Of a stretch of DNA of 64,000 nt, positions 1 to 15,466 are shown one piece after another. The stretch lies in the IMG/VR virus record IMGVR_UViG_3300031520_000001, positions 1,415 through 65,414 of that record. One strand, 5' to 3'. Origin of the DNA: a virus. A model generated the notes under the pieces. That model was not told where the DNA came from. It ran no database searches and saw only the letters and a program-made list of their open reading frames with translations. Positions within the stretch are counted from its first letter, which is position 1. Each line of letters starts with the position of its first letter. Both the position numbers and the translations under genes were made by a program.

Positions 1-953
1 GTGCCAAGAGAGCCAGCATCGTTTGCAAACTCTTTGAAACTGCCTCCTGATACCTCAAGCATCGCCTTCATGGATTTGTTTCCGCCAACAATCGCAGAAA
101 TCGCGGCAACATACTTCGCAGAGCCAACGGGAAACTTCTCTCCGACCGCCTTCGTGATCATGTCAACGGTGCCAGGAAGTGAGACCTTCATTTCGTCAGA
201 GATTTGCTGTGTGGTCAGTCCGACTTCTTTGAGGACCTTTGTTGCCTTTGAGGAGGGAGCCAGCAAATAGGTCAGCATCTGAGAGAGGTGTGTTCCTGCC
301 GCCGCACCTTTGTCGCCTGCATTCGACATCGTAGAGAGAGCAGCTTCCACATCAGTGATTTTCACACCGGCTGTTGCGGCAATAGGCAAGACGTTTCGTA
401 ATGCGCCCGTCAAGTCGTCCATATGCATTTTGCCCATCGAGGCCGCCATGCGAAACGAGTTCATCACGTTGACAGCTTGTTGCGCTGGCATGTGGTAGCT
501 ATGCATGGTGGTGGTAAGCACATCCGTTGTCGCGGCGAGATCGGAATTTTCAACCTTTGCGCCCATTGCGGCTGCACGCATGACACTTAATCCTGCTGCG
601 CCTCGGTAGCCCGCACTTTCCACATTAAACATGCCTTTAGCAAGTTGCTCGGTACTCGTTCCTGTATCTATCCCCATTTGTAAGAGGCCATCACCCACCA
701 TCTTGATTTTGTCTTGCGACTCACCAGCAGAGTTGACAAGCAGCGTCATGGATTGCTGCCAGTCACCCGCCATTTTGACGGTTTGCGCACCAACGGCAAC
801 GGCGGTCAGTCCAACGGCAGCGAGACCGATACCTACCGCACCTACGGGATTACTCGCAAGGCTCGACAGTGCGTTTTTGGCCATGTTGATGCCACTGATG
901 AGATTGGTCGTATTGGCTGAGAAATTCACGCCAATTGAGCCTATAAGCGGCAT
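1..953 (-). CDS. tail tape measure protein (TP901-like), 5' part; runs off the window start
   Basis: Manual translation from ATG at 953 (MPLIGSIGVNFSANTTNL...SMTLLVNSAGES...AAAMGAKVENSDL...) is Ala/Gly-rich and open to position 1; lies directly after the tail chaperone. Confidence 0.9.
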   Translation of the reverse strand, partial: MPLIGSIGVNFSANTTNLISGINMAKNALSSLASNPVGAVGIGLAAVGLTAVAVGAQTVKMAGDWQQSMTLLVNSAGESQDKIKMVGDGLLQMGIDTGTSTEQLAKGMFNVESAGYRGAAGLSVMRAAAMGAKVENSDLAATTDVLTTTMHSYHMPAQQAVNVMNSFRMAASMGKMHMDDLTGALRNVLPIAATAGVKITDVEAALSTMSNAGDKGAAAGTHLSQMLTYLLAPSSKATKVLKEVGLTTQQISDEMKVSLPGTVDMITKAVGEKFPVGSAKYVAAISAIVGGNKSMKAMLEVSGGSFKEFANDAGSLG

Positions 954-962
954 CGCATACTC

Positions 963-1036
963 CCTAAAAATACAAAAAGTGTACAGATGAATGTGTGTTC
1001 ATCTGTACACTTGCCCAATAGTTGGTAGCTAAGTGT
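963..1036 (-). promoter_or_regulatory. putative terminator/antiterminator switch, copy A (upstream of tape measure gene)
   Basis: Sense strand ACACTT-AGCTACCAACTATTGGGC-AAGTGT overlaps a 15-bp terminator stem AAGTGTACAGATGAA/TTCATCTGTACACTT followed by TTTG. Confidence 0.6.
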
Positions 1037-1039
1037 GAG

Positions 1040-1264
1040 TTATCCCCCAAGCAAGCTCGTCGTGTTGCCACTGGTAGACGCTTTACTTCGCGCCTCCTCC
1101 TCTTTGGCAATCTGGTGAAAGTAGGCCATCCAGTTGTTAATCACTGAGTAGCCTACCGATCCAACTAGACGGTCTGGGTCGATGCAGTTGAAGCGAGCGG
1201 CAAGGTCGTACTTGGCGCGTTCACTTGCGCTGTAACTGTCGTGCCTGGGATTGAAGCGTTTTTT
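1040..1264 (-). CDS. -1 frameshift extension of tail assembly chaperone (GT-like product)
   Basis: In-phase slippery heptamer A-AAA-AAC at 1258-1264; the -1 frame is open to TAA at 1040 (KKRFNPRHDSY...INNWMAYFHQIAKEEEARSK...GG*). Confidence 0.75.
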   Translation of the reverse strand, partial: KKRFNPRHDSYSASERAKYDLAARFNCIDPDRLVGSVGYSVINNWMAYFHQIAKEEEARSKASTSGNTTSLLGG

Positions 1265-1668
1265 GCGTTTTCCTGCGCCTTGTCGTCTAAGCCCGATAAT
1301 TTCGCAGAAGCGTTAGCGGCTGTCATGATGCGCCCCATGCCCGTTTTCAGGAGCATGTCACGGTCTGCGACGGAGAAAATGAGCGCCTTATCAGGATCAT
1401 CGGCATTGCGAATGGTATCAATGACTAGAGAGGACAACAATTTCTTCTGATTGACAGTTGGGGGCGTGGTGCTGCTATCGGTACATTCTGTGAGCAGATC
1501 TAGCCCAACATCGCCAGGAAGTTCACGAATAATGAGCTTCGCGTCTTTCAGTTTTGCGAGATCAACGGTGATAGGCTCTTCTCTGAGTGGCTCGTCCAGC
1601 CATGCGGAACGAATGTCTTGTGTACTAAGCATTTTCTTGAGTGTCACTTTCTTTGGTTGAATAGTCAT
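1165..1668 (-). CDS. tail assembly chaperone (G-like)
   Basis: 167 aa between tail tube genes and tape measure gene, with slippery site near the 3' end. Confidence 0.8.
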   Translation of the reverse strand: MTIQPKKVTLKKMLSTQDIRSAWLDEPLREEPITVDLAKLKDAKLIIRELPGDVGLDLLTECTDSSTTPPTVNQKKLLSSLVIDTIRNADDPDKALIFSVADRDMLLKTGMGRIMTAANASAKLSGLDDKAQENAKNASIPGTTVTAQVNAPSTTLPLASTASTQTV

Positions 1669-1670
1669 GA

Positions 1671-2315
1671 TTAAGAAGCCAAGAAGTAGACAGGACCAGA
1701 GACTTCAAAGTCCAAATCTTCTTCCACTAACTTGTCTACCGCGATTTTGAGTGCGTCCGTTTTGAGCAAGCCATAACAGACATAGCGAGACGTAGGATTC
1801 GATCCGTTGTAGAGCACTAAGAGCAAGAGCGTATTCGTGCCGATGTACTGCATGAGCGTCGCGTCTACCCACCACTTATTCACCTTCACGGCAGCACCAA
1901 CAAGCTTACTTTGCTTCGTCTTCCACTGCGACGGCGGATTGGTCCACGCAGTAGTGTCTTCGATATCCACCGTGTTGGTGATATCAACAGATTTCGCATT
2001 GCCAAGAAACGCCACAACCACATAGTTTGCTGATGCGATGCGCACTTGCACAGTAGAGGCATTCGCCGCCAAAAACTTCACACGTCCAATGGAGTACTGC
2101 ACGATAAAGCCACTCGTAATCGCGCTCCACGTCGTACCATTGTCAGGTGAGGTCTGTACCACCACTGCAACAGTTGGGTCAAGTGCCTGATGTGCAGTAT
2201 TCGTGATGACGTAGGAAATATGATCTCCTACGTCGGTCATGGCCTCATTCGTTGTTGCGATAGATGGTGGTGAGGACAGGTAGAAATTGGCAAGGTAGCC
2301 TTGAAGTGCTGGCAT
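1671..2315 (-). CDS. tail tube protein paralogue with internal insertion
   Basis: Shares M.A..GYLA..Y, DI..T...WK.K..G and DF..SGP motifs with 2332-2742. Confidence 0.6.
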   Translation of the reverse strand: MPALQGYLANFYLSSPPSIATTNEAMTDVGDHISYVITNTAHQALDPTVAVVVQTSPDNGTTWSAITSGFIVQYSIGRVKFLAANASTVQVRIASANYVVVAFLGNAKSVDITNTVDIEDTTAWTNPPSQWKTKQSKLVGAAVKVNKWWVDATLMQYIGTNTLLLLVLYNGSNPTSRYVCYGLLKTDALKIAVDKLVEEDLDFEVSGPVYFLAS

Positions 2316-2331
2316 TGTAAGCTCCTACAAT

Positions 2332-2742
2332 TTACGGTGTGAAGACAATCGGCCCTGACCCATCCAGATCAAAACTTATGTCGTCCTGCTTGTTGACCGC
2401 GAACTTGAGACCTTCGCTCTTGTTGATAGCGGTCCCACTAAAGAGCGTGGTCGCGGCCGCTCCTTTTGGCTTGATCTGCCACGAGACCAACGCGCCTGGA
2501 TTGGTGATCGTTGCAGCCTGAATAGCCATTTGCTGTGCATCGCTAAAGTCGGTATAGCCTGAGAGTTTGAGCATGTAATCCGCAAGTCCACCGAGTTTAC
2601 GTTTCCATGCATCGCCTTGCCCAAGTGCGGTAATGTCGTAGACGTCGCCATTGATGGTCAAGTCTGCTTGTGTGAGATTGCCTATCACGGCTAGTGTAGA
2701 GCCGATATAGACCGTTGCCAGATAACCCGCATTTGCCGCCAT
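2332..2742 (-). CDS. major tail (tube) protein
   Basis: 136 aa, DITALG..AWKRKLGGL and SFDLDGSGP tail-tube motifs; position after tail terminator. Confidence 0.8.
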   Translation of the reverse strand: MAANAGYLATVYIGSTLAVIGNLTQADLTINGDVYDITALGQGDAWKRKLGGLADYMLKLSGYTDFSDAQQMAIQAATITNPGALVSWQIKPKGAAATTLFSGTAINKSEGLKFAVNKQDDISFDLDGSGPIVFTP

Positions 2743-2751
2743 GTCTTTCTC

Positions 2752-3180
2752 CTATTGAATAAAAATGTCGTATTTGAGTGTCAAGTGCCAGGTGAGACCA
2801 TCGTTATCCTGAACACCATTTGCCATGTTGTACATCATGCTTGCCACTGTGAGTGTTGCCAGCACCAACGGCTGTTGTGGTTGGTCAAACAGTCCGTTGA
2901 GATAGTCCACTGCTTTGTCAGCATTGAATGTTCCGTTGTCACGCGTAAACAGGTGTATGCTCGTGAGTAGGGCGTATCCCTTGCGTCCAAATGCGTTTTT
3001 GGGCATTTCCTGTGTATCGCCAATCAGGATGTATTGTGGCTTCGTCCCAGACGGTACTCCGCGAATGTTGTACACCGCTTGAAAGCCTAAGCTACTGAGT
3101 GCCGCGACAATCACGTTGTTGCTCGTCAGTTTGGCATAGAGCGCAGTGTGCAGCTCAACCTTCGCCGTGTTCGCAGTCAT
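2752..3180 (-). CDS. tail terminator / tail completion protein (DUF3168-like)
   Basis: 142 aa, ALYAKL...PQYILIG...SIHLFT pattern and synteny. Confidence 0.75.
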   Translation of the reverse strand: MTANTAKVELHTALYAKLTSNNVIVAALSSLGFQAVYNIRGVPSGTKPQYILIGDTQEMPKNAFGRKGYALLTSIHLFTRDNGTFNADKAVDYLNGLFDQPQQPLVLATLTVASMMYNMANGVQDNDGLTWHLTLKYDIFIQ

Positions 3181-3311
3181 TGCCCTGATGCCCTCATCGC
3201 ACGTGAAACCGCCGCACTATAGCCAAGCACAATCGCCAAGCCAGAGAACACGCCAAAGAGATACGAGAAGAGCAGGATGAGCCAGAACAGCCATTCAGGA
3301 AGTGCAAGCAT
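3177..3311 (-). CDS. small membrane protein
   Basis: MLALPEWLFWLILLFSYLFGVFSGLAIVLG..., hydrophobic, stop overlaps next start. Confidence 0.5.
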   Translation of the reverse strand: MLALPEWLFWLILLFSYLFGVFSGLAIVLGYSAAVSRAMRASGQ

Positions 3312-3312
3312 G

Positions 3313-3501
3313 TTAGACCGTCGCTTTCTGCTGTGGGACGCTCGCAACCTTCTCAGGCAGAGCAGACCGCTTGATCGCAAGAGTGATTGTCACCGTCTCT
3401 GCCTTCGTGCCAAGCCATTGAAACGCACGATGCACCAGATAGACCAGTGCGATGAGCAAGGCCAACAGAGCGCATAATCCGAACACAATCACTGCTATCA
3501 C
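3313..3501 (-). CDS. small membrane protein
   Basis: N-terminal hydrophobic helix MIAVIVFGLCALLALLIALVYLV; translationally coupled. Confidence 0.55.
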   Translation of the reverse strand: MIAVIVFGLCALLALLIALVYLVHRAFQWLGTKAETVTITLAIKRSALPEKVASVPQQKATV

Positions 3502-3851
3502 TTGATGACTCCTTGCATATCCTGCTCATACTGTTGAGCATGTTGGAAGAATGGTGCGGTTAGGAACGGATTCGGTGGCACATACGAGCCTGACCGTGTA
3601 TGATGGCCTTGATCGACATACAAAGCAGGTGAGTCGTATTCAACGGTTCCCTGCAATGTGCCGATGGTCACAACCTTACTTGCTTTCATCGCGCCCGTGC
3701 GTACAGGTGCTAGTGCTTCTGAGTCGTCACCCGTACCATTCGTGTGCTTCTCGATAATCGCTTGCACATCGGCTTGCGATTGCACGGAGAGATTGTCTAA
3801 GCCGCTTATAACCGCCTCTAAGCCGTTGAGAGACATGCTGATATCGCTCAC
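3498..3851 (-). CDS. HK97 gp10-like tail completion protein
   Basis: APVRTG..K.S, YA/LYV..G and P.PFL motifs. Confidence 0.8.
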   Translation of the reverse strand: MSDISMSLNGLEAVISGLDNLSVQSQADVQAIIEKHTNGTGDDSEALAPVRTGAMKASKVVTIGTLQGTVEYDSPALYVDQGHHTRSGSYVPPNPFLTAPFFQHAQQYEQDMQGVIK

Positions 3852-4042
3852 TGCTGTACTCCTTGCGATGCTCGTATGCGATGTGGCAATTCTTTGAGAG
3901 CAGCTTCAATCTCTTCGTGTACAATTTGTCTGATTTTTAAGCGGAACTCGTGAACCTTGCCCTCGATGTTGTCGTCTTCAAGAGCTTGTGTGAGTTCGCT
4001 TGTATCAGCCGTCAGTTTGATATGTGTATCGAGTTTTGCCAC
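3848..4042 (-). CDS. hypothetical protein
   Basis: 64 aa ORF coupled to both neighbours. Confidence 0.55.
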   Translation of the reverse strand: MAKLDTHIKLTADTSELTQALEDDNIEGKVHEFRLKIRQIVHEEIEAALKELPHRIRASQGVQQ

Positions 4043-4428
4043 TAGCTCACCTCTTCTAATTCGTCTAGCACGACGTACACCCGCCTCACGACCTCATAGG
4101 TCACGGGGTCAAGCGGGGCAATCACGCGATGGACAACACCCGCGATGCGCAATCGGTCCTGTGTTTTCACGTCGGTATGGCGTGGCAACATCGCAATCTT
4201 AATCACCGCGCTCACCAATTGCGTGTCGTCTACCAACTCTTTAGGCGCACGTTGCACGTTGACCAACACACACGGGACTGTCGAGAGAATAGGCCACGTT
4301 ACCCCTGTTTTGCCCCCTTGTGTGTCTTGCGTACTGGTTGCTCGTAGGACATCGCACGTGTCGGACATGACCAAGTCCTGAATCACTTGCCCGTATCCTG
4401 CGAGGTCTGCATCCGTGAAAATCGCCAC
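4042..4428 (-). CDS. head closure / head-tail adaptor (SPP1 gp16-like)
   Basis: 128 aa, LP..TDVK..DRL.I.G..H.V pattern and synteny. Confidence 0.75.
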   Translation of the reverse strand: MAIFTDADLAGYGQVIQDLVMSDTCDVLRATSTQDTQGGKTGVTWPILSTVPCVLVNVQRAPKELVDDTQLVSAVIKIAMLPRHTDVKTQDRLRIAGVVHRVIAPLDPVTYEVVRRVYVVLDELEEVS

Positions 4429-4895
4429 TAGAAGCCACCTCCATATGAGCCATAGGGAATGAAGCCATACGGATAATCAGGTTCCAGGAAGTCCAGTTCA
4501 ATGCGTCCCATCTGGAACCCTGTGTTGCGTCCACCAACGTCGTAGCCAAGCTTGATGCATTCGTTCTCAGCCTCTTCCATTTGTGCCATGACGTGTGTGT
4601 AGGCTTGCGAACGCAATGCAACTAACGCCTGTGGAACCGTGACATCGAAGCGAACCGCGAGTAACCGCGTAAACCGTTTGAGTGCGTAGTAATTGAGTAA
4701 GGCCAAGTAGCCACGTATCTGCGCCTGTGGCACGTCAAACGAGGCTAACAGGTCCTCCGTGACGCCAAGTTGTCGGAGCGACATGTCCACCGCAAAGTTA
4801 TAGGCAGTGGTCAGTTGATCGCTCGTAAACTTGGCATCCGTTGCAAGGTCTGAGTACTCATTGGTTAAGTTGGTGATTGCGGTTGCCCGTTGCAT
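4428..4895 (-). CDS. head-tail connector (adaptor) protein
   Basis: 155 aa helical protein between capsid and closure genes; assigned by synteny. Confidence 0.6.
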   Translation of the reverse strand: MQRATAITNLTNEYSDLATDAKFTSDQLTTAYNFAVDMSLRQLGVTEDLLASFDVPQAQIRGYLALLNYYALKRFTRLLAVRFDVTVPQALVALRSQAYTHVMAQMEEAENECIKLGYDVGGRNTGFQMGRIELDFLEPDYPYGFIPYGSYGGGF

Positions 4896-4898
4896 CGA

Positions 4899-5063
4899 TT
4901 ATGCCTTTATTGGATTGCCGTTCGCATCGACAAGAAATCCGTTGACCATGTATTTCCCGCCTGGAATGGTCTCATCAAGCGGTTTCACATCAGCGATTGG
5001 TGCTATTTCCGGTGGTGTTGGTGCCGGAGTCGGGTCTGGCACCTTTGGTGTTGGATCTGCCAT
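4899..5063 (-). CDS. small Pro-rich head-associated protein
   Basis: Manual translation MADPTPKVPDPTPAPTPPEIAPIADVKPLDETIPGGKYMVNGFLVDANGNPIKA*, AAGGAG RBS; fills the gap after the capsid gene. Confidence 0.65.
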   Translation of the reverse strand: MADPTPKVPDPTPAPTPPEIAPIADVKPLDETIPGGKYMVNGFLVDANGNPIKA

Positions 5064-5075
5064 GTCAGTTACTCC

Positions 5076-6173
5076 TTAGAATGGTCCTGCGACTGGTTCG
5101 ACATAGGTTGCATTTGGACTGATGTTGAGACATGCTCCATTGCGCCTTTCAAAAACTCCTATCCCATACTCACGCTGCATGTACTGTGCGCGAAGTGGGT
5201 AATTCTCATAGTCCGCAGCAATGTGCAGATCGCCGGGCTGTCCTACGCGGGTACGCATGCGCAACGGCTTGTCGGCTGCTGTATTGAAGCAGAACAGGTA
5301 GCCGCTTGGCACCCACGGCTTGACCCAGATTTCCGCCTGTTGGTAGATACCAATTGGCCGGTTGTAGGGGTCCATCAGGTCCAGCGTTTTCGCGCCTGCG
5401 AAGTCCTGGTTGACGCTTGGTGTAATGCGTGGGTCATAGTACGGGTAGAACTTGATCGGTGTCGTCGTCAGAGCGCGGACGGTTGGTTCTTCTGTGCGAT
5501 TGATGTAGACGCGAATTTGACCATTCATCCAGTGCTCCACTACCGTCGCAATCAACGCCTGTAAATCAGCGTCAGCAAGCGTTGCTGCTACTGTTGCAAG
5601 GTAGTGCGTATGGGTACCCGCATTGAAGATGCGACCATACTGATCGGGTGGAATGTACGTTCCGTCTGCATTGAGCAATGCGCGAAGTGGGTACGTGGCA
5701 CGGTCTATATAGCGGTCAATGTAGTTGGGCGTGTTGGTTGGATGAAACAAATTGTAGCGAATAGCACGCATCATATCGCGCAAGTCCGCATCGCGGATAG
5801 CGGTCAAGATGCTATCGAGATCGCCCACAGTCTTGTTCATCATGAAATCGCGTGTGACGCCCCATGCAGCCTGTTTGCGAGTGAACGGAAAGCCCATGAG
5901 GGTAGGCGTTGGCGCGGTTTTCTGCACGTCTGGGCGGCCATACTCATCACTTTCCATCATGTCGAGAGAGTCGTTGCTGCCCCAGGTCATGAAGCGCTCT
6001 TGCGTGGGCGCAACGAGGTCTTCAGTCATTTCCTGGAAGATGCGATTATGCGCTTGCAGGAAAATGGTGATCTGCTGATAGAGCGTTGCTTCATCATAGA
6101 TGTTGATGAACTGGTTGTACTGTGCCTTTTTCGCCCCGATGGTATCGAGAATATTTAAGGTACCGAAAGCCAT
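5076..6173 (-). CDS. major capsid protein
   Basis: 365 aa following scaffold and decoration genes; size and position typical of an HK97-fold capsid protein. Confidence 0.8.
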   Translation of the reverse strand: MAFGTLNILDTIGAKKAQYNQFINIYDEATLYQQITIFLQAHNRIFQEMTEDLVAPTQERFMTWGSNDSLDMMESDEYGRPDVQKTAPTPTLMGFPFTRKQAAWGVTRDFMMNKTVGDLDSILTAIRDADLRDMMRAIRYNLFHPTNTPNYIDRYIDRATYPLRALLNADGTYIPPDQYGRIFNAGTHTHYLATVAATLADADLQALIATVVEHWMNGQIRVYINRTEEPTVRALTTTPIKFYPYYDPRITPSVNQDFAGAKTLDLMDPYNRPIGIYQQAEIWVKPWVPSGYLFCFNTAADKPLRMRTRVGQPGDLHIAADYENYPLRAQYMQREYGIGVFERRNGACLNISPNATYVEPVAGPF

Positions 6174-6198
6174 TGAAATGATGTCCTTTCTTTAGGCT

Positions 6199-6633
6199 TT
6201 AGGCCCAACTACGCTTGACTTCGATCCGTGAGCCAACCGTCGAATTGACGTAATCAGGCACGACACGTGCAATTGGTGCGACGCCACCAGCCGTTGGCGC
6301 GGTATTGAGGCCACCTGGAACGGTGTCGAGGTAGAGGAAGGTGCCAGGGGTCATACCTGCACCATAGGCGAAGCGAACGCCATAATACAGCGAAATCGCG
6401 CCACCAAGAGGGCAATCGCTGGACGCGAAACCGTCTACGACATTTGAGGGGTCGGAGGCAACGGTGCCATTGGAGCGATAAACTAAACCATCGGCACTCT
6501 TGATGTAGCAGGCGTCTCCAGCTGCGATGGCCTCACCTGCATGAAGTCCTGAGAGATTACAGGACGTGGGCGGTACGGCTGTCACCAGTGATGGTTTACC
6601 GACCTTTGCGACACTAGGCATGAAAGCCTCCAA
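6199..6633 (-). CDS. capsid decoration / cement protein
   Basis: 144 aa Gly/Ala-rich, AGEAIAAGD.CYIK...G..YL motif, immediately upstream of capsid gene. Confidence 0.7.
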   Translation of the reverse strand: MEAFMPSVAKVGKPSLVTAVPPTSCNLSGLHAGEAIAAGDACYIKSADGLVYRSNGTVASDPSNVVDGFASSDCPLGGAISLYYGVRFAYGAGMTPGTFLYLDTVPGGLNTAPTAGGVAPIARVVPDYVNSTVGSRIEVKRSWA

Positions 6634-6697
6634 AACAAAAAAAGAGTGTATGAGGAAATTTCCTCATACACTCACCCAATAATTGCTAGTTAAGTGT
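6631..6697 (-). promoter_or_regulatory. putative terminator/antiterminator switch, copy B (upstream of decoration and capsid genes)
   Basis: Sense ACACTTA-ACTAGCAATTATTGGG-TGAGTGT overlaps a 13-bp stem GAGTGTATGAGGA/TCCTCATACACTC followed by T7. Confidence 0.6.
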
Positions 6698-6717
6698 TGT
6701 TGTGCGAAACCATCCTG

Positions 6718-7317
6718 CTACATCTTGCCTGCAAGTCCTGATGCCCGATAGCGTTTGTAGTAGTCGTTGACATCGGTGCCAGGTTCGTCGCTACTTGGTT
6801 TCGGATTCGGCACGTTTCCAGGCGTCTGCCCGCGTGCCTGTGTGTTCAGGCGTTCAACCAGTGGTCTGAGCTTTTCAAGCGACTTCAAGCGATCTTCAAC
6901 GGGAGCGGATTTATCGGGAAGCAAGTCTTTGATTTCTGCGGGCCAGTCTTTGACCTCTGCTTTAATCTGCTCATTCACGATGTCTGAAAGTTTGGTGTAT
7001 CGCTCAACCGTTGGTTCAAGCTCTTTGACACGTTGCTCGTGCTGCTCTGCCAACTTCTGAAATTCGCCTTGTTTGCGTAACTCTTCTTGCTCTTGCTGCT
7101 GTCGAGCAGTTTCCTGAGCTTTGAGCGTTTCGCGTTTCTCCTTGTTTTCGTTCCGCAAGGTGCTGATAAGCTCCTGGATATCTTGCGGTAAGGAGTCAAT
7201 GGAAGTGCGTCCGTTCGGTGTCTGCCCGTTCGGTGTGGGTGTGGGCGTCTGCCCTGTGGAGTCTCCATCATTGAGCGTCTGCCCGTTTGATGGAGCGTTA
7301 TTGTTCTGTTGAGTCAT
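6718..7317 (-). CDS. capsid scaffolding protein
   Basis: Disordered N-terminus, coiled coil LRNENKEKRE...ELRKQGEFQKLAEQ, upstream of capsid genes. Confidence 0.8.
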   Translation of the reverse strand: MTQQNNNAPSNGQTLNDGDSTGQTPTPTPNGQTPNGRTSIDSLPQDIQELISTLRNENKEKRETLKAQETARQQQEQEELRKQGEFQKLAEQHEQRVKELEPTVERYTKLSDIVNEQIKAEVKDWPAEIKDLLPDKSAPVEDRLKSLEKLRPLVERLNTQARGQTPGNVPNPKPSSDEPGTDVNDYYKRYRASGLAGKM

Positions 7318-7372
7318 TTATAACACATCCTTCCTATGGTGTCAATAGTTGAGTGTAAACGCACTCAAATGG

Positions 7373-7540
7373 CTATTTGTTGTCTTTCGTTAGATGTTCT
7401 TTGCAGAGTGCCTCGATATCATCTACGGCATCACTTAATGCCCATGATTTTACAGTTTCTCCTTCAGCGTTGTCCTTCAATTCCTCCCGTACTGATCGCA
7501 CTCGCTCAAGTATCTTTTGTATAAATTCTTCTGTAGTCAC
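7373..7540 (-). CDS. hypothetical protein (55 aa)
   Basis: GTG start with AAGGAG RBS; MTTEEFIQKILERVRSVREELK...KEHLTKDNK*. Confidence 0.55.
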   Translation of the reverse strand: MTTEEFIQKILERVRSVREELKDNAEGETVKSWALSDAVDDIEALCKEHLTKDNK

Positions 7541-7743
7541 TGGCTTGACTCCTTATTCTCATGTTTCTTTCGTTGATAAAATCCGTAGGGACGCAGTTCG
7601 TCTTCCTCGTGTTGCTTGCGTGGCGTGAAGCCGAACGGGACATGCTCTTTTTCCTCATACTTGTCGTCCTCTGGTTCAGGGGTGACGTTGGACGTGACAA
7701 AGCCATCACGGAGCGAGGAAAGAGCGTATGCATCCCGGTACAT
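7537..7743 (-). CDS. hypothetical protein
   Basis: 68 aa acidic ORF coupled to neighbours. Confidence 0.5.
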   Translation of the reverse strand: MYRDAYALSSLRDGFVTSNVTPEPEDDKYEEKEHVPFGFTPRKQHEEDELRPYGFYQRKKHENKESSQ

Positions 7744-7747
7744 ACGA

Positions 7748-8050
7748 TTATCCTTCTGGCAATTCGTCTACTTCAAGCGCAGTTACAGCAATTTCAATAT
7801 TGTCGAGTTGAATCGTCTCTTTTATAAGATTGCGATCTTCTCCAATCATAAATTTTCCTGATTCATCAGTTCTGCAATACTTGATTACCGCTCTATTTTT
7901 CTCACTTGGACTGAGTAAAAGAAACACATGTTCAATATTGTTTATACGTTCACCTGTTTCAACATCGGTTGCAGTAAGAAAGAAACCTGCAATGTCCTTC
8001 ATTCCACCTTCAATGCGAACACGTCGCTTCCAATCCTTGTGCATGTTCAT
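7748..8050 (-). CDS. hypothetical protein
   Basis: Start moved to ATG at 8050 (AAGGAG RBS): MNMHKDWKRRVRIEGG... Confidence 0.6.
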   Translation of the reverse strand: MNMHKDWKRRVRIEGGMKDIAGFFLTATDVETGERINNIEHVFLLLSPSEKNRAVIKYCRTDESGKFMIGEDRNLIKETIQLDNIEIAVTALEVDELPEG

Positions 8051-8307
8051 TATTTGACTCTCCTTATGCCCTCTTCTACTGGGTGTGTAGTGTGCGTAGA
8101 AGTGAGATCGTAACCACATTCTGGACATGTCTTTGCAGGTTGAGGCAACATCTGCACAACGATGAGAAACACAGCACATGAGAGAGCGGCATTCGTCCAT
8201 TGTCCGCCAGGAAGGAATGTCAGGATGTGCGTAAAGCCTGGAATAAGATAATAGACGAATGCCACAAGTGAGAGAGCGGTAATGCTATTGAGCAGTGTTG
8301 TTTTCAT
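8050..8307 (-). CDS. membrane protein with C-terminal zinc ribbon
   Basis: Two hydrophobic segments then CPECGY. Confidence 0.55.
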   Translation of the reverse strand: MKTTLLNSITALSLVAFVYYLIPGFTHILTFLPGGQWTNAALSCAVFLIVVQMLPQPAKTCPECGYDLTSTHTTHPVEEGIRRVK

Positions 8308-8798
8308 GCGGTCTTGCCTTTCGGATAAAACTGCCCACGTCGTCGCCGCCACGCATAGTCACGGTTGCCAAGCGTGATATGTAGTGGCCCAACGCGTATC
8401 ACACGCACAAACAGATGTGAACCAATATCATAGCGTCCAGCATGTTCCCTCCAGTGCGTGAAAGCCCACTTCGGTACCACACGCATATGAACAGGCCATA
8501 GCATCACTTTGTCTTTCGCGTCCCATTGCCTGCCACAGGACGAACAGGTGTAGCGTTTGAACGTCACGCCGCGCTCGGTTGTTTGGTAGCAGGTGAGCTT
8601 GCCAGATACACAGTATACGCATAACGTAAGCCATATATTAACGCCGCGCTCGGTTGTTTGGTAGCAGGTGAGCTTGCCAGTGTGCAACATGCGCGTATTT
8701 TGTGGGTTACAGGTGATACATAACGGGTGCTTGTTCATTTTCTTTTCTCGTTTATGCCATGCTCGGTACTTGATTGGCTTCATCGGCTCTTTCCTCAT
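8304..8798 (-). CDS. zinc-ribbon protein carrying an in-frame 75-bp duplication/insertion
   Basis: CITC...CSSC; peptide GKLTCYQTTERGV occurs twice; start uncertain. Confidence 0.5.
   Translation of the reverse strand: MRKEPMKPIKYRAWHKREKKMNKHPLCITCNPQNTRMLHTGKLTCYQTTERGVNIWLTLCVYCVSGKLTCYQTTERGVTFKRYTCSSCGRQWDAKDKVMLWPVHMRVVPKWAFTHWREHAGRYDIGSHLFVRVIRVGPLHITLGNRDYAWRRRRGQFYPKGKTA
8566..8680. repeat. perfect 40-bp direct repeat (8566-8605, 8641-8680) flanking a 35-bp insert identical to 43585-43619 (reverse complement)
   Basis: Repeat acgccgcgctcggttgtttggtagcaggtgagcttgccag; insert atacacagtatacgcataacgtaagccatatatta. Confidence 0.95.
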
Positions 8799-8952
8799 GT
8801 CCAGGTGTCGCTAGAATGGGCAACAGGTTGGGCACGTCGGTCTGCTTGACCTGTGTCTTTATTTTCACAGGAGCTTTGAGGATCGGTGCAGCATCGCGTC
8901 CTGTCTTGGCTCCAATGGCTTGCTGTTTCTTCATACGCGTCTTGATGCTCAT
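8752..8952 (-). CDS. hypothetical basic protein
   Basis: 66 aa, coupled to upstream ORF. Confidence 0.45.
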   Translation of the reverse strand: MSIKTRMKKQQAIGAKTGRDAAPILKAPVKIKTQVKQTDVPNLLPILATPGHEERADEANQVPSMA

Positions 8953-9128
8953 TGTGTCACCTTTAGTAGTTGCAATATCTCTGACGCAACGGCAATCATG
9001 AGATGTTTGTTGTTTTCAGGAACATCTTTCCACGGCACGGCACTTGCCTTGCGTGTTTGGTAATTGTAGAGAGGAGCTAATAGCTCGTAGGTCTCGTGAA
9101 ATTTCTGTGCTAATTCTTCTGCTGTCAT
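8949..9128 (-). CDS. hypothetical phage protein (59 aa)
   Basis: Manual translation MTAEELAQKFHETYELLAPLYNYQTRKASAVPWKDVPENNKHLMIAVASEILQLLKVTQ*, overlapping start/stop junctions. Confidence 0.65.
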   Translation of the reverse strand: MTAEELAQKFHETYELLAPLYNYQTRKASAVPWKDVPENNKHLMIAVASEILQLLKVTQ

Positions 9129-9376
9129 GAAGCTTTCCTCCTTCGTTCCTCACGTCTATACGCTTGCCATATATCGCTCTGTGCATCGTCATACGCTTTG
9201 TAAATGTTTGTCACTATGGCGAACAGCAGCAGCACATCTTTGAGACTGCACACGTCTTGTTCTAAGTGATGTATCAGGCGCAACACATTACGACCTATCT
9301 GTGCGTCAAATACGCTGTCCGTGTCGATCATGCCTTGACGCTCTAACCACGCGTGGGCGAATTGTGCGAGAGTCAT
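9125..9376 (-). CDS. hypothetical protein
   Basis: 83 aa, coupled ORF. Confidence 0.55.
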   Translation of the reverse strand: MTLAQFAHAWLERQGMIDTDSVFDAQIGRNVLRLIHHLEQDVCSLKDVLLLFAIVTNIYKAYDDAQSDIWQAYRREERRRKAS

Positions 9377-9741
9377 ACAGGTCTAAAAAATGATGAGGAT
9401 TTTTGTGCGTCCTCTTGCTGTTTGCGAGCAATGCCCACATGCTCGCTTGTGGCTTTGAGCAACGTTGCAACAAGTGGTAACATGACCAATGCATCGTGTG
9501 GCTGCTTCTGTGCTTTGAGCATCTCTTCAACAAGGTGATAGGCCAGTTCGTCCGCTTTGTCGAGTACGGTGTCAATTTCATACCCAGCATCGTACAAATC
9601 TTGCATATAAGGCTGTAGTTTGCGAATAAGTTTTCGCTCTGGGTGAAGTTCATCGAGCGTCACCTTCGCAAGTTCTTTGCCATCAATCTCAATGATGATG
9701 GATGTATTTGGCTGACATCCACTGACATTAAATGTGTTCAT
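9373..9741 (-). CDS. hypothetical protein
   Basis: 122 aa, coupled ORF. Confidence 0.6.
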   Translation of the reverse strand: MNTFNVSGCQPNTSIIIEIDGKELAKVTLDELHPERKLIRKLQPYMQDLYDAGYEIDTVLDKADELAYHLVEEMLKAQKQPHDALVMLPLVATLLKATSEHVGIARKQQEDAQKSSSFFRPV

Positions 9742-10082
9742 ACGTTATTTTCCCCTTTGGTTGCTTGTGTAACTTGTTGTGGTTGTGTTCTTGGCGAAAT
9801 ATATACTTCTGTAGAGAGTTCGCAATACCAATTGTTGCGCTCTATCTCCACAAAGAGAAGTTGGATTGTGCGTCCATTGCGAAACGTGAAAGACCATGAT
9901 TGCTGATTTTGCTTGACGCCAAATGTATCACGTGGTTCCATCAGGCGGATAAGCACCTCTTGGATATCGTCAAATGACCACTCTTTGACTAAGAGGATGT
10001 ACCATGTGACGAATTGCACAATCGGTTGCTCTTTATTAGCCCTAAAGAAATCGAGTGTGCTACTTCCCTGAATTGCTGCCAT
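9738..10082 (-). CDS. hypothetical protein
   Basis: 114 aa, overlaps portal 3' end. Confidence 0.55.
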   Translation of the reverse strand: MAAIQGSSTLDFFRANKEQPIVQFVTWYILLVKEWSFDDIQEVLIRLMEPRDTFGVKQNQQSWSFTFRNGRTIQLLFVEIERNNWYCELSTEVYISPRTQPQQVTQATKGENNV

Positions 10083-11814
10083 TTTTCACCCCTTGTTTTT
10101 GTGGATCAGCATTGTGTGATCCGTTCGGCTGTTGCTGAGTATCGCTCGGTTGCGGTTTCGTGACCTGTGCGAGCTTGATCGCGTGGTCTTGTTGCTGTTG
10201 CAACTGTGCTTGCTCTTGCTTCTGTTGTGCGTCGAGTTGCGATTGTAGCTCGGTCAATTCCTCATCCGAGAAACCAGCATCGGCAAGTGCGAACGGTAAC
10301 GGTGCGCCTGAACTTGTTGCTGCTTGCACACCAAGCCACAACGCTTGCTTCTCTTGCGCTATCTCTAGTTTCGTCGGCACCAACAAAGGCCGAGGCATAA
10401 TCGCCATGTCGAGATTACCTGATGCGTAGCTGGTCAGGTCGAATGGAGTAAACTTTTGTTGTTGCTTATTGAGCTTGCCCCATACACCACTATTGGCGCG
10501 AAATCCAGCGATAGCGACGACCATGCGTTGCATCGAGACGGTGCCTTGATCGTAAATCGCTTGCGCTTCTGTGAGACGCCCTACGACATCCGAGGCGATA
10601 CGTGCAGCCCCAGGCCCTGTCACTTGTGTCATCTCGCGCAACTCTCGATTAAAGGCGAGTTCAGGATGATCGGCCTCAATTTCTTTGATGAGATGTTGCA
10701 TGTAGGCAGCAGCATCGGCAAGGTTCAAGTCACCTGCGAGGCTATCCACTTTTCCATTTTCAGGCCCTTTGAGCATCAAGAGTGATTCTTCTTCAGCCGC
10801 CTGTGGGGTATCGTATTCGTTGGTAAGACCACGCTTAGAGCCTCCAAACAACTTGCCAACACTGCCACTACTCCACATGACTAAAGGCGCACCAATCTTC
10901 TTGTGTATCTGGTCGTGGACATGTGAGGCAAGATTGTTGAGTTCGTCAATCTTGCCGAGACTTCCAGCGATGGCAGGTGTGCCATGATTGCCGCCCACGT
11001 CCTGATGTTTTATCCACATGGCAGGACAAAACGTATACGGATGCGACACCACCGTGCCATTGCCATAATCGAATGGTTCATGGTCTTTGAAATACTGAAT
11101 GGTCATATCATCAACAACTTTGGTAAAGACATACGTCGTACCATCGTCTTCTCTGACGCTATACTCAATCATGTAGAGTTTGACGTTCCCTGCGCCATCG
11201 AGTTCTAAATCGTAGATAAATCCAGGCCACACAATGTCAGCAGTCACCACACCGCTTTCAACATCATCAACAATCTCGACAAGTACGCTTCCAAGTGCCG
11301 CGCCAAAGCGTACTAAGAGTCCTTTTTTTGCTTGCCAGTTGCTCCATTGCCAGAATTGCGCGATAGCGGATTTCAGTGCAGGGTCGGTATCTTCTGCGAA
11401 GGGAATAGCGAGCGACACCCCATCGGGCAAGGTCTTGCCATCTTCGGACAACACGCCAGGGTAGACATTTCCTGCGTAGAAATCGACTAAGCGACGAGTG
11501 GGATTGTAAATCGGGCGAATGTTGCGATAGAGGTTGTAATTGCTCTTATAAGCTGAGAATGGATTATAGGGATACATCGGGGTTGCGCTATTGCCGTAGA
11601 GATGATACGACATGGCGGTCTGGACCGTGCGGTCAAACACACTGCTATTATAGTACGCCCACAGGAGGCTATACTGTTGCTGCTGAGAGACAAAACTACG
11701 CTGTTGATAACTTGTAGCAGGGTCCTCATACGGACGCAGTGCGTAGTTGATGCCAGAGTTCAATCCGTTCTGTATCAGGTTTAAGCCGTTGTTGACCATG
11801 CCCATAATTCCCAT
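10060..11814 (-). CDS. portal protein
   Basis: 584 aa directly downstream of terminase large subunit; coiled-coil C-terminus. Confidence 0.85.
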   Translation of the reverse strand: MGIMGMVNNGLNLIQNGLNSGINYALRPYEDPATSYQQRSFVSQQQQYSLLWAYYNSSVFDRTVQTAMSYHLYGNSATPMYPYNPFSAYKSNYNLYRNIRPIYNPTRRLVDFYAGNVYPGVLSEDGKTLPDGVSLAIPFAEDTDPALKSAIAQFWQWSNWQAKKGLLVRFGAALGSVLVEIVDDVESGVVTADIVWPGFIYDLELDGAGNVKLYMIEYSVREDDGTTYVFTKVVDDMTIQYFKDHEPFDYGNGTVVSHPYTFCPAMWIKHQDVGGNHGTPAIAGSLGKIDELNNLASHVHDQIHKKIGAPLVMWSSGSVGKLFGGSKRGLTNEYDTPQAAEEESLLMLKGPENGKVDSLAGDLNLADAAAYMQHLIKEIEADHPELAFNRELREMTQVTGPGAARIASDVVGRLTEAQAIYDQGTVSMQRMVVAIAGFRANSGVWGKLNKQQQKFTPFDLTSYASGNLDMAIMPRPLLVPTKLEIAQEKQALWLGVQAATSSGAPLPFALADAGFSDEELTELQSQLDAQQKQEQAQLQQQQDHAIKLAQVTKPQPSDTQQQPNGSHNADPQKQGVKNGSNSGK

Positions 11815-11816
11815 CT

Positions 11817-13394
11817 TTAGTATCCTCTAAAATTCTGTAGAGCGTTTACGGTGTTTTCGTCCATCTCATCTACCATTGGACTGGTTACCGCGTCAGCTGC
11901 CATGCTCACATTGTCGACAATATCGTCATGAGCACCCATCGGAAATGTCAGTAATTCGCTTTCAACATCGTTCAGCCAAGACGCGCTTTTAAGAAAATAG
12001 AACTTGCCATTTTCCATCCAAATACTTGCCGTGCTCGCTCGCGACACTTTATCTTTGACAGGTCGATATTCTTCACATGGCACGCCACGCACAAGAAGTT
12101 GCTGAATGAGTGCGAGTTGATAGCCAACGGACTCTATGCGGAAATAATCAGGTCGGTAGCGTTGATGGAGAAGTTCAATTTGTTTCTGCTGAGAAGGATT
12201 ATCGAAACGATCACGAACGAGGTCTATCAGCAATAAATCATTTTCGTTGGTCAATGCCCATATCGCAATTACCGTGTAATCTGCTGTTTGCTTAGAGGAT
12301 ACTGCAAGGTCAACCGTTCCAAAGATGCTACAGTGATTTTTGAACAACGAGCGTGTGCCGTTTGGCGTTTCCATAATGTACGCTTCTTGCGTCTCGCCAA
12401 AGTAGCGAAACCACTGCTTGCGAAATTGACCACCACCACTAGGCACTGGCGATTGCTGATATTGCGCTGCATAGCCAACGGAGCCAAGATCACGTTTATA
12501 TCGCGTCAGTGTTGCATCGTTAAAGCGTTCAGGCCAGAGCAATTGGCCTTCCTCAGTACGCCAATCAGACCAGCCGATACGTGTGTAACATTTTCGTGTT
12601 GGCTCGTACTCAGCAGGCAGATTAAGATGTGTCCAGTCTGGACGCTCTTTGATAATCACGCCTGATACATCCTCTTCATGGATGCGCTGTCCAATAACGA
12701 GCATCACGTCTTTATCAGCATCGTTCATGCGGTTTGACCATGTTTCACGGAACCACGTTACTGCCGATTCACGTTCCATCTGGCTATGTGCTTCTGTTGC
12801 TGAATGCGGATCGTCTATCAACAGTTTTGAACCGCCCTCACCTGTTGTGGTACTTCCAACGGAAACCGCCAACTGATAGCCCATCTTATCGTTCATAAAA
12901 AAGCGTTTCGCGTTCTGTTGCTCACTGAGTCCAAAGTCGCGTTCTCGCTCAAAATGCACTGACGCCGACTCAGAAACAATCGAAAGCTCACTTCCATAGC
13001 GATCTTGAAACCAGCGCGACTCTATCAGATTGCGCTTTTTGAGGTTGTCACGAATAGCGAGGTTGAGGCCATAGGAGGCACACAGGAACCTATCAGCAGG
13101 ATTGCGGAGCCAACACCACACAGGCCATAACACGCTGCATATGGTACTCTTACTGTGCCTTGGAGGAATGTTGATCAAGAGGAAGCGAAGTTGCCCGGTA
13201 GTTAAGGCGGTAAGATGATCACATATCGCATCGACAACATAACCATCCTGAAAGTGTTGAGGTTCTATGATAGACCATGCGCCAACAACAAACGCTTTGA
13301 GCGAGCGTCGCATTTCCTCAGCTTCTGCCATCGCAAGCAGTGCGTCACCTAACGAGAGAGTTTGTGTTGAGGAAGGAACATGGAATCGCGTCAC
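11817..13394 (-). CDS. terL: terminase large subunit
   Basis: NIPPRHSKST Walker A variant, LLIDDPH Walker B, VDLA...DYT and HDDIVD nuclease motifs. Confidence 0.95.
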   Translation of the reverse strand: MTRFHVPSSTQTLSLGDALLAMAEAEEMRRSLKAFVVGAWSIIEPQHFQDGYVVDAICDHLTALTTGQLRFLLINIPPRHSKSTICSVLWPVWCWLRNPADRFLCASYGLNLAIRDNLKKRNLIESRWFQDRYGSELSIVSESASVHFERERDFGLSEQQNAKRFFMNDKMGYQLAVSVGSTTTGEGGSKLLIDDPHSATEAHSQMERESAVTWFRETWSNRMNDADKDVMLVIGQRIHEEDVSGVIIKERPDWTHLNLPAEYEPTRKCYTRIGWSDWRTEEGQLLWPERFNDATLTRYKRDLGSVGYAAQYQQSPVPSGGGQFRKQWFRYFGETQEAYIMETPNGTRSLFKNHCSIFGTVDLAVSSKQTADYTVIAIWALTNENDLLLIDLVRDRFDNPSQQKQIELLHQRYRPDYFRIESVGYQLALIQQLLVRGVPCEEYRPVKDKVSRASTASIWMENGKFYFLKSASWLNDVESELLTFPMGAHDDIVDNVSMAADAVTSPMVDEMDENTVNALQNFRGY

Positions 13395-13921
13395 TTCTGC
13401 TCACCAGCTTTCAATTCTTTTGCAAGGACTTTGAGTGTGGCAAGTTGCTCAGAGGAAAGAGAACGAGGGTCAATGTTGATCACATTTTGCGATCGGACCT
13501 GTGCATTCACATGAGCATTCACATCTACTTGTGATTTCTCTCGATACTTTGCCATGCGAGACTTCGCCAATAACGTGAGCATCGCATCACTTTTTCGCGT
13601 GGCATAGCAGACAAGTTTTCCTGCACTCACTTGAGGCTCTTCCCATCCAACAACTGCACGTTGATAAATCTCATGATCTATAGCACCATCGGCTTGGATT
13701 TCAGCTATGCGATATTCCTCTGCAAAGTCTTCATATCGTTCTTTCCAGTCGTATGGAGTGTCGATATGTATCCCTGCAACTCTACACGCCTCACTCATAT
13801 TTCCCTCATCACGAAACGTCGCAAGAAATACCTCTTGTGCTTTCTTGCGTTCCTTCGCGCTCATTCGTTGTCCCTGCCTTCGCGCGTGTAGGGGTGTAGG
13901 AGTTTCGGACTGTGCGCTCAC
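13391..13921 (-). CDS. terS: terminase small subunit
   Basis: HTH (GNMSEACRVAGI..T.YDW), EI..RA..GWEEP...SD.ML..LAK pattern, upstream of terL. Confidence 0.85.
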   Translation of the reverse strand: MSAQSETPTPLHARRQGQRMSAKERKKAQEVFLATFRDEGNMSEACRVAGIHIDTPYDWKERYEDFAEEYRIAEIQADGAIDHEIYQRAVVGWEEPQVSAGKLVCYATRKSDAMLTLLAKSRMAKYREKSQVDVNAHVNAQVRSQNVINIDPRSLSSEQLATLKVLAKELKAGEQK

Positions 13922-13936
13922 TTCTGCCTCGCAGAC

Positions 13937-14002
13937 AACAAAAAGGACGCACTCTCGTTTCTTCTGGTGAGAGTGCGTCTGTCAATAGAAATAACTAGAC
14001 GC
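13937..14002 (-). promoter_or_regulatory. putative terminator/antiterminator switch, copy C (late operon leader upstream of terS)
   Basis: Sense GCGTCT-AGTTATTTCTATTGAC-AGACGC overlaps an 11-bp stem GACGCACTCTC/GAGAGTGCGTC followed by CTTTTTG. Confidence 0.6.
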
Positions 14003-14019
14003 TATGAATTACTGAATAG

Positions 14020-14048
14020 AGTATACAGGAGAATGCAGAGATTGTCTA
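14020..14048 (-). promoter_or_regulatory. putative sigma70-type late promoter
   Basis: TAGACA-17 bp-TATACT immediately upstream of the attenuator-like leader. Confidence 0.6.
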
Positions 14049-14303
14049 TTGTAGGCCACGTTCTCGCAGTGTCGCGCGTTTGCCCGCGCGTATTGCGTCT
14101 GGAATGCGCACGTCGTACTGACAGCGCACTTTCTGAAATTCGCCTTTCCACTTGGAAAATATCACATCAATGTTATCATGCTCTTTGGTCAGCGCGAGAA
14201 TAAGCCGCGCCACTGCTAACGCTCGCTGAAAATCAAAATCATCCTCATCATGATTGCGTACTACTGATAATTGGGGCGGCATAAGTCTGTCCTTAATTTC
14301 CAT
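14046..14303 (-). CDS. hypothetical protein directly upstream of the late promoter
   Basis: 85 aa; its TAG stop forms part of the -35 hexamer. Confidence 0.55.
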   Translation of the reverse strand: MEIKDRLMPPQLSVVRNHDEDDFDFQRALAVARLILALTKEHDNIDVIFSKWKGEFQKVRCQYDVRIPDAIRAGKRATLRERGLQ

Positions 14304-14392
14304 AACACGATAAAAGAAGTCTCAGGAAATTCTCATACTACTCATAGAACGCATGAGCTAGGGATATATAACAGATTGTCTTATGTAAGACT

Positions 14393-14800
14393 TCAACGAT
14401 GTAACAACTCAGGATTATCATGCACATTCCCAACAACGAGCGCATATTCAGCATGGCGATACATCGGTTTGAATTGACCTTCGTCATCTTGTGTGACACC
14501 TTGCATCACGCCAAATCCTCCTGGCAATTGCGGTTGTGGCTCACCATCAGATGTTTGATAAAACTCCTCTGGTGTCAGTGCGTTCCACCATGCGCGTTTA
14601 TATTCGACAACACGAATGTTGTCATACACCTTGATAATGTCATGCTCATATATCTCAGTTCCCATCGCGTCGTTGAGGCCGATATATTGCCCAACGGTTT
14701 CTCTCTCGACTAATGCCCAAAATTGCTCCCAAGCGTCATTCTCAGAATCAACATGCCACCAATTCCCTTGCACTTTACCGCGAAACTTGATTATTCTCAC
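14393..14800 (-). CDS. YopX family protein
   Basis: IKFRG..., TVGQYIGL.D..G.EIYE.DI, V.GNVHDNPELL signatures. Confidence 0.9.
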   Translation of the reverse strand: MRIIKFRGKVQGNWWHVDSENDAWEQFWALVERETVGQYIGLNDAMGTEIYEHDIIKVYDNIRVVEYKRAWWNALTPEEFYQTSDGEPQPQLPGGFGVMQGVTQDDEGQFKPMYRHAEYALVVGNVHDNPELLHR

Positions 14801-15296: not shown

Positions 15297-15466
15297 GCTA
15301 GTACTCTACAATCATGTTGCTAGTGCTCATCATAACAGGAAATTGAGCGGAATGGAAGAGGATTACAGGTAGCAAAAATGCATGAAAATGTGTTATAATA
15401 GGGTATAGAAAAGAGTAATTAAAGATACATTTTCTTACTCTGTCAAAAATGACAAGAAGGAGAACG

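Follow-up and report, generated by a model that had tools for sequence, protein, structure and literature searches.

The question raised by the locus described here is whether the leaders of three groups of virion genes in a phage act as transcriptional switches, and on what such switches would depend. The DNA analysed (hereafter the window) is a stretch of 64 kb from IMG/VR virus record IMGVR_UViG_3300031520_000001, contained in a single viral contig of 67,546 bp; coordinates are those of the window, and the late genes, together with all the leader features given below, are on its minus strand. From the sequence alone, an initial annotation had described three leaders of like architecture, here designated A (ahead of the tape measure gene), B (ahead of the decoration and capsid genes) and C (ahead of terS), in which a short hairpin overlaps an intrinsic terminator, and had proposed that a phage factor binds the hairpin loop to license read-through. 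The observation is confirmed and the interpretation is partly supported: the leaders may be antiterminators working in the manner of the ribonucleic antiterminator (RAT) elements of bacterial operons. The whole evidence is computational and concerns three phages from rock metagenomes.

In each leader the parts come in the same order, i.e. a hairpin of 6-7 bp (hairpin 1), an intrinsic terminator, its U-tract, a Shine-Dalgarno sequence and the start codon, and the 3' arm of hairpin 1 supplies the first 5-6 nt of the 5' arm of the terminator, so that the two structures are mutually exclusive, as had been claimed. A check of the sequence found the three leaders where they had been placed, with stems that pair in each copy. 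In leader C, hairpin 1 (13975-14002), the candidate antiterminator, reads GCGTCT / AGUUAUUUCUAUUGAC / AGACGC with a 16-nt loop; the terminator (13935-13979, stem at 13946-13979) has an 11-bp stem (GACGCACTCTC/GAGAGTGCGTC), a 12-nt loop and the tail CUUUUUGUUGU, its first 5 nt doubling as the 3' arm of hairpin 1; the U-tract reads CTTTTT, and a GAGG ribosome-binding site and a GTG start codon at 13921 follow. Leader B comprises hairpin 1 at 6668-6697 (ACACUUA / ACUAGCAAUUAUUGGG / UGAGUGU, 16-nt loop) and a terminator at 6632-6673 (13-bp stem at 6644-6673, 4-nt loop, U7GUUUU), then a GGAGG ribosome-binding site and an ATG at 6621. In leader A, hairpin 1 (1007-1036; ACACUU / AGCUACCAACUAUUGGGC / AAGUGU, 18-nt loop) begins 5 nt past the stop of the frameshift-extended tail chaperone frame and is followed by a terminator at 965-1012 (15-bp stem at 977-1012, 6-nt loop, UUUUUGUAUUUUU), an AGGGAG ribosome-binding site and an ATG at 953. 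The loop consensus proposed earlier, UAR-YUA-N3-4-YUAUUG-R, fits all three copies exactly, and over the whole 67.5-kb genome a YTATTGR loop occurs together with both a flanking stem and a terminator at A, B and C only.

All three leaders have the attributes of intrinsic (Rho-independent) terminators: the stem contains G+C and is at least 7 bp long, the loop is short, and a U-tract lies directly 3' of the stem. These are the only strong terminators on the late strand. Their folding z-scores against shuffled sequences were -3.8, -4.4 and -2.5 for A, B and C, respectively. The promoter that the initial annotation had seen ahead of leader C was retrieved by a consensus scan at 14020-14048, as TAGACA (-35), a 17-nt spacer and TATACT (-10), with 10 matches out of 12; this late promoter and terminators A and B were recovered independently by the consensus/pattern scan. 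Leader C begins 17 nt downstream of the promoter, and its terminator ends about 75-85 nt past it, ahead of terS.

The energies of the alternative folds agree with the mutual exclusion of the two hairpins. When the leaders were cut before the 3' arm of the terminator, as in a nascent transcript, the minimum-energy fold was hairpin 1 (A, -9.0; B, -8.4; C, -12.2 kcal/mol); for the complete leaders it was the terminator (-21 to -23 kcal/mol). Because of this difference between nascent and full leaders, hairpin 1 is predicted to form first and to be unable to hold unaided, as is the case with RAT elements.

Two related phages carry the element. The nearest complete relative, IMG/VR contig 3300031472_000001 (L001, hereafter G001), is 62 kb long and has a capsid protein 67% identical to that of the window phage. 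Its leader B' is in the same place as B, with the three pairing segments and the U-tract and ribosome-binding site identical; divergence has affected the loop, the upper part of the terminator stem and the genes on either side. In its leader C', the 3' base of the terminator, the U-tract and the ribosome-binding site are identical to C over 26 nt. The late promoter of the window, identical in strain contig L144, is kept in G001 as TAGACA-18-TATACT, and a -10-like TATACA lies 7 nt after the -10 of G001, at most a hint of the sigma-dependent promoter-proximal pause of Q systems. The other relative, L145, is a 2.8-kb contig from a third phage, with a capsid protein 61% identical.

Both helices covary. 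Over A, B, C, B' and C' (L145 was left out of this count), the outer stem of hairpin 1 is 96.7% paired, with four of its six pairs changed on both sides, against 17-57% for slid controls. In terminator B, the nine basal pairs are 100% paired in four copies and five of them show double changes. RNAalifold, run on five copies, recovered the outer stem and added a bulged A and up to three inner pairs with compensatory changes, two of which are changed on both sides among the window copies (G-C/A-U and C-G/U-A), leaving an apical loop A-N3-4-YUAUU. An alternative inner helix, UAR/YUA, likewise covaries between A and B, and the choice between the two inner helices is undecided.

A covariance model built from the same five copies (R1), a check of the kind suggested along with the initial annotation, matched a leader on which it had not been trained, B'' of L145 (E 2.8e-7). 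This leader reads ACGCTT-AGTTAGCAATTATTGGAC-GAGCGT-TGAACTG..CAGTTCA-ACGCTC-TCTTTTT. Compared with B, ACACTT/GAGTGT/ACACTC has become ACGCTT/GAGCGT/ACGCTC: one position is altered in all three segments (A to G in the first, T to C in the second, A to G in the third), and therefore both alternative helices are preserved. On sequence grounds, we consider this three-way change to be the strongest single argument for selection on the competition between hairpin and terminator.

The loop tells a second story. That of L145 keeps 13 consecutive nt of window leader B (TAGCAATTATTGG) next to upper terminator stems that are unrelated, so that, between these two phages, conservation is much stronger in the loop than in the upper part of the terminator stem, which is neutral. 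Within the window, YUAUUGR is common to leaders with unrelated stems (A and B versus C). Leaders B' and C' of G001 share a different loop motif, GA(C)UAU(U)CGUA(G)UCC (P 0.018), and the orthologous loops, B with B' and C with C', are not significantly alike. The loops thus evolve in concert within a genome and differ between genomes, as one would expect if each phage had a recognition partner of its own; gene conversion between copies would be the alternative.

The resemblance between the leaders is more than their overlap with a terminator. Their shared geometry (a loop of 15-19 nt and an arm starting at most 1 nt from the terminator base) has a P of about 0.01 per terminator, the presence of CTATTG in the same part of the loop in A and C a P of 0.045, and a descriptor combining the stem, UAR..YUA and an abutting terminator matched A, C and B' in 1.32 Mb, both strands, for about 0.05 matches expected; the descriptor was composed after the copies had been seen, which makes these figures generous, i.e. 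upper bounds on significance. Leader B also satisfies the descriptor and was missed in that scan because the terminator routine over-extended its stem.

Given the anatomy, the energy-based folding order, the way in which both helices covary and the selective retention of the loop, we propose, giving it a little less than an even chance, that leaders A, B and C are RAT-like, factor-stabilised antiterminators placed at three terminators. A sigma-70-type promoter would fire into leader C, and the polymerase would first transcribe hairpin 1, with its 6-bp outer stem, its bulged A, 2-3 more pairs and a 9-10 nt loop, A-N3-4-YUAUU. The longer terminator stem, as it emerges, would displace the 3' arm of hairpin 1 and bring transcription to a stop at the U-tract; termination would therefore be the default state. 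A trans-acting factor, in all likelihood a protein that the phage produces at an earlier stage of infection or upon induction, would recognise the loop and the bulge and keep hairpin 1 closed. The terminator could then not form its bottom 5-6 pairs, and read-through would reach the packaging genes from C, the head genes from B, and the tape measure and distal tail genes from A. The actual occurrence of termination and read-through, the existence of a factor and its role in opening, not closing, the switch are inferred, as is the binding of a protein to the loop.

Several observations weigh against this proposal. The intrinsic terminators are predicted by sequence criteria and their use by the host is presumed, and the three sequencing runs that contain the phage are all DNA runs from rock metagenomes, with no RNA run among them. 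The 6-bp upstream complement is by itself not significant for any single leader (P 0.06-0.23), and no enrichment of such complements was seen at 33 strong terminators of related phages. Conservation of the loop in relatives, which the initial annotation expected, holds for the 13 nt of L145 but is limited by the other loop found at B' and C' in the closest complete relative, G001, where moreover the C' hairpin is marginal (4+1 bp, -4 kcal/mol) and no leader precedes the tape measure gene; the element is absent from about 100 more distant relatives. Only three phages in all, the window phage included, carry it, and independent lineages are few because A, B, B' and B'' are mutually homologous. 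In 1.36 Mb of relatives R1 matched its five training copies only, and a metagenome pattern scan gave 39 matches, about as many as expected by chance according to our estimate, of which only the G001 contig was real, with zero new relatives. Finally, among the roughly 90 open reading frames (ORFs) of the phage, searches with Pfam and/or PHROGs found no Q, N, CAT-PRD, ANTAR or NusG-like protein and no member of another RNA-binding antiterminator family.

Other searches for relatives gave a similar picture. A search of IMG/VR with the capsid protein as single query had no matches; with an alignment it yielded 80 viral and 12 genome loci, among which the element was present only in L001 (G001). 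Exact-pattern scans of viral contigs, for the 3' ends of the leaders and for the ACACTTA..RAGTGT..ACACTY architecture, likewise returned only G001. A looser tail pattern matched two low-GC phages, both unrelated and hence discarded. The terS leaders of three contigs (L010, L011 and L021) share a TTTTTGTTG tail and were set aside as well: there the terminator precedes the promoter, an arrangement different from that of leader C. By and large, the support from relatives appears real but narrow.

The search for the factor was carried out on the same set of ORFs. The absence of Q, N and CAT-PRD homologues noted in the initial annotation was borne out: no CAT_RBD or PRD domain was detected at E<=0.01, although the host might supply such a protein, no Q family protein was found in the ORFs at 14046-15480 just upstream of the promoter (one of them is YopX and the others have no match), and there was no N-like PHROG or Pfam match, hairpin 1 also differing from boxB in size and loop. 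In agreement with the view that the motif belongs to no described RNA family, Rfam gave zero matches at the gathering threshold over the 64 kb and, at E<=5 over 900-14100, only three chance-level matches to eukaryotic RNAs (E 2.8-4.1), one of which spans leader B on the opposite strand. As for a trans-acting RNA complementary to the loops, only chance-level 8-10-mers were seen.

Two ORFs near the promoter were considered. The 85-aa ORF at 14046-14303 (minus strand), which had been singled out by its position, does have its stop codon in the -35 hexamer (the TAG of TAGACA). It has no Pfam or PHROG match and a poor predicted fold, is an ORFan with no relative among 5.8 billion proteins, and is dissimilar to the G001 ORF occupying the same slot; it is thus a candidate by position only. 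The 134-aa ORF at 14797-15201 (minus strand) lies two genes upstream of the late promoter. Over its C-terminal 59 aa it resembles, at 37% identity, a 154-aa coiled-coil ORF of G001 (L093:4186-4650) that sits near the late promoter of that phage. With no more than two representatives among 1.8 billion proteins, and no assigned function, it was not retained as the factor.

Two other explanations of the leaders were also set aside. Attenuation by a leader peptide or coupled ribosomes finds no upstream ORF in the leaders, and only leader A is close enough to an upstream stop codon. A promoter hidden in the loop, suggested by TTGACA in C and TTGGGY in A and B, was rejected for lack, in every copy, of a -10 at a usable distance.

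Among the alternatives to a factor-stabilised antiterminator, the one that survives best, while still unlikely in our estimation, is that the leaders are factor-independent attenuators: partial stops would set the amounts of packaging, head and tail transcripts, and hairpin 1, unbound, would only adjust their efficiency by delaying the folding of the terminator. That the competing hairpin comes first by energy and that about 90 ORFs yielded no factor both suit this explanation, and a stop ahead of the tape measure gene fits a lower need for distal tail proteins. It leaves unexplained, however, why the loop is retained between the window phage and L145 beside a replaced upper terminator stem, and why unrelated leaders within one genome have a loop motif in common. 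Moreover, stops placed before the most abundant virion proteins (B), or close to the promoter (C), would make little sense unless they could be relieved.

Processive antitermination by an unrecognised Q-, N- or put-like system is quite unlikely. RNA polymerase would then be modified either at the late promoter or at the hairpins, as nut-like loading sites, and the overlap of the hairpins with the terminators would be secondary. Leader C has the layout of lambda PR'-tR' before terS, with a promoter conserved in G001, strong pre-capsid terminators with -10-like sequences occur in many distant relatives, and an RNA hairpin repeated along an operon recalls nutL and nutR. For such a system, though, one site suffices, yet here a hairpin abuts each terminator; the three-way covariation points to selection on the competition between hairpin and terminator; and no protein of the Q or N family was found.

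The leaders are also places where genomes have been joined. The promoter and the 3' part of leader C are conserved in G001, which has no homologues of the terS and terL of the window. In a strain present in two other rock-metagenome runs, 11825-13915 (minus strand, terL and terS) is replaced by 1708 nt of a G001-type terminase module encoding a 160-aa terS, 59% identical to that of G001, and a Terminase_6 terL. The breakpoints are the terS start codon, directly after leader C, and the terL stop, and leader C is 100% identical in the swapped strain; the cassette therefore belongs to the regulatory background and not to the genes downstream. At leader B, hairpin 1 (6668-6696) is the exact point at which the assembly unitigs of run X3 are interrupted, and there the loose ends show the same 29 nt joined on both sides to foreign sequence matching neither genome nor fetched loci, and another genome in the X3 sample probably carries the same B hairpin. 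A contig of run X2 joins a B-type terminator tail and ribosome-binding site to a variant tape measure start, MALIGNVGVS (joint 923/6627); a related phage therefore also has a tape-measure leader, with a B-type 3' end.

These junctions bear on a third explanation, that the leaders are elements of mRNA processing or stability combined with recombination junctions, the stem guarding a 5' or 3' end and hairpin 1 being a nuclease or protein site. We regard it as very unlikely. Besides the coincidence of the leaders with mosaic breakpoints (the terminase swap at C and the unitig breaks at B), it can draw on the slot between the scaffold and decoration genes of related phages, which holds a different conserved hairpin sequestering the ribosome-binding site. 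Yet G+C-rich stems directly followed by U-tracts are canonical terminators, and one would not expect a stability element to be under selection for mutually exclusive pairing. A DNA-level site, i.e. an inverted repeat acting as operator of a dimeric DNA-binding regulator or recombinase, is scarcely credible: the repeat has a conserved centre, the C loop contains TTGACA and an extra CAACTATTGAC at 7341-7351 supplies the -35 to a promoter-like site, but the half-sites differ wholly between A/B and C with pairing kept, the covariation reaches a third segment, which is sensible only in RNA, and the sites lie downstream of the sole promoter or inside the operon.

With a factor-stabilised antiterminator as the preferred reading, the element would work like RAT. 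In the BglG/SacY/LicT systems (E. coli bgl; B. subtilis sacB, sacPA, licS and bglPH), a short imperfect hairpin likewise overlaps the 5' arm of a terminator, is weaker than it (here -8 to -12 versus -21 to -23 kcal/mol) and needs stabilising, and several conserved copies per regulon act locally, each at its own terminator. Unlike these systems, the phage has no CAT-PRD protein according to Pfam, and the element serves a virion operon instead of sugar operons, without sugar or phosphotransferase system input. To our knowledge the sequence of the hairpin 1 loop and bulge is unrelated to that of RAT, an element with two asymmetric internal loops. The ANTAR regulators (AmiR, NasR, EutV) also stabilise an antiterminator that competes with a terminator; they differ in that their substrate consists of two hexaloop hairpins, hairpin 1 being single and bulged with a loop of 9-10 nt, and a protein with an ANTAR domain was not found.

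Antitermination of phage late genes is known to occur by modification of RNA polymerase, as with lambda Q and N, HK022 put, Xp10 p7 and P23-45 gp39. Lambdoid late control (Q, PR', 6S RNA and tR') resembles the present case in its constitutive-looking promoter, its promoter-proximal terminator before terS, the dependence of late genes on a relieved stop and a regulator slot just upstream of the promoter. However, Q is loaded on DNA and acts processively, so that downstream terminators need no element, whereas here a hairpin stands at each of three terminators, and the ORFs searched hold no Q family protein. Lambda N/nut (boxB) and HK022 put likewise rely on small RNA hairpins, repeated in phage operons, for terminator read-through, but both exert their effect from afar and share no sequence with the terminator. 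They are also unlike hairpin 1, since boxB has a 5-bp stem capped by a pentaloop and put RNA, about 70 nt long, folds into two hairpins, and an N-like arginine-rich protein was not identified in the window phage. The element thus falls outside the RAT/CAT-PRD, Q, N and ANTAR systems because their defining proteins are absent from the ORFs searched, and we know of no local, hairpin-by-hairpin switch of the BglG/LicT kind described for phage virion operons.

A wider interpretation, possible but doubtful, is that a family of Chloroflexota-type phage-plasmids has its own RNA-binding antiterminator of a novel protein family, which would clamp a bulged hairpin (loop A-N3-4-YUAUU) at each of three terminators, with separate gates for packaging, head and tail and a loop code switched between relatives. 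The window phage and L145 would share one loop and G001 would have another, hairpin and factor forming exchangeable specificity pairs; phages would then possess an equivalent of RAT/LicT and, beside N and Q, a third way of achieving antitermination. If the preferred, RAT-like reading is right, the leaders would amount to a compact cassette of about 70-90 nt, a portable 'terminator plus key', there would be a new RNA-binding regulator to seek among ORFs without function, and the silencing of three virion modules during carriage of the phage-plasmid would be explained. The element marks mosaic junctions and may help explain how modules are exchanged with regulation retained.

The identities of the genes behind the leaders were largely as first annotated. 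PHROGs matches were obtained for terS, terL, portal, major head protein, tail assembly chaperone and tape measure. terS (13391-13921), the first gene after leader C, matches PHROG 4044 (terminase small subunit, E 9e-24), the major capsid (major head protein) gene (5076-6173) matches PHROG 3990 (E 2e-35), and the 5' part of the tape measure gene (3-953) matches tape measure families with E down to 4e-37; this gene leaves the contig at one end and resumes at the opposite end. The 140-aa gene upstream of the capsid gene (6199-6621 in the ORF list), called 'decoration' in the initial annotation, is without a family match and can only be termed decoration-like. The tail assembly chaperone gene (1165-1668) is followed by a -1 frame that stays open until a TAA at 1044-1042 (minus strand, region 1042-1200), in keeping with a G/GT frameshift product. 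Between the stop of that frame and the ATG of the tape measure gene is a gap of 88 nt, all of it taken up by leader A; the gap is 8 nt in G001.

Megablast of 20 kb against the INPHARED phages gave zero matches. The capsid protein is of a type found in a large family of contigs, each of about 60 kb, and its cellular matches are in Thermosporothrix hazakensis (Ktedonobacteria) and in other soil and rock metagenome-assembled genomes, which fits the initial guess of a Chloroflexota phage. The Pfam and PHROGs families recognised in the window ORFs include helix-turn-helix proteins, integrase, ParA, DnaB, Dam, Mom, RusA, YopX and TnpB. The TnpB gene (IS605 OrfB / Cas12f-like TNB, 438 aa) is at 21204-22520 on the plus strand, in the early region of the phage.

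A few side observations were made on promoters, hairpins and terminators of this phage and its relatives. The fourth copy of the loop motif, at 7341-7351, forms the -35 of a promoter-like TTGACA-17-TATAAA (7317-7351, minus strand), the -10 of which adjoins the ATG of a 199-aa gene; G001 has there TTGACT-16-TACAAT without the motif. This site could be an internal head promoter. In relatives that lack leader B (L147:9529-9591, L148 and L150-L154), the slot separating the scaffold-like from the decoration-like gene is occupied by another conserved hairpin, CCUUUUGA-CCNCUC-UUUACAA-GNGGG-AAAGGAG. The inner stem of this hairpin covaries, its loop UUUACAA is invariant and its base pairs with the Shine-Dalgarno sequence, so that it looks like a translational operator. 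In many distant relatives (L033-L037, L043, L044, L048, L055-L067, L076, L080, L083, L090 and L092) the head genes are preceded by a G+C-rich terminator that is very strong (-18 to -39 kcal/mol) and lies about 1.1-1.3 kb upstream of the capsid gene, with -10-like sequences about 30 nt ahead of it. The whole family may have in common a promoter-proximal stop ahead of virion genes. An 11-mer, TTCATAGCGTC, is common to L055-L060 and leader C of the window.

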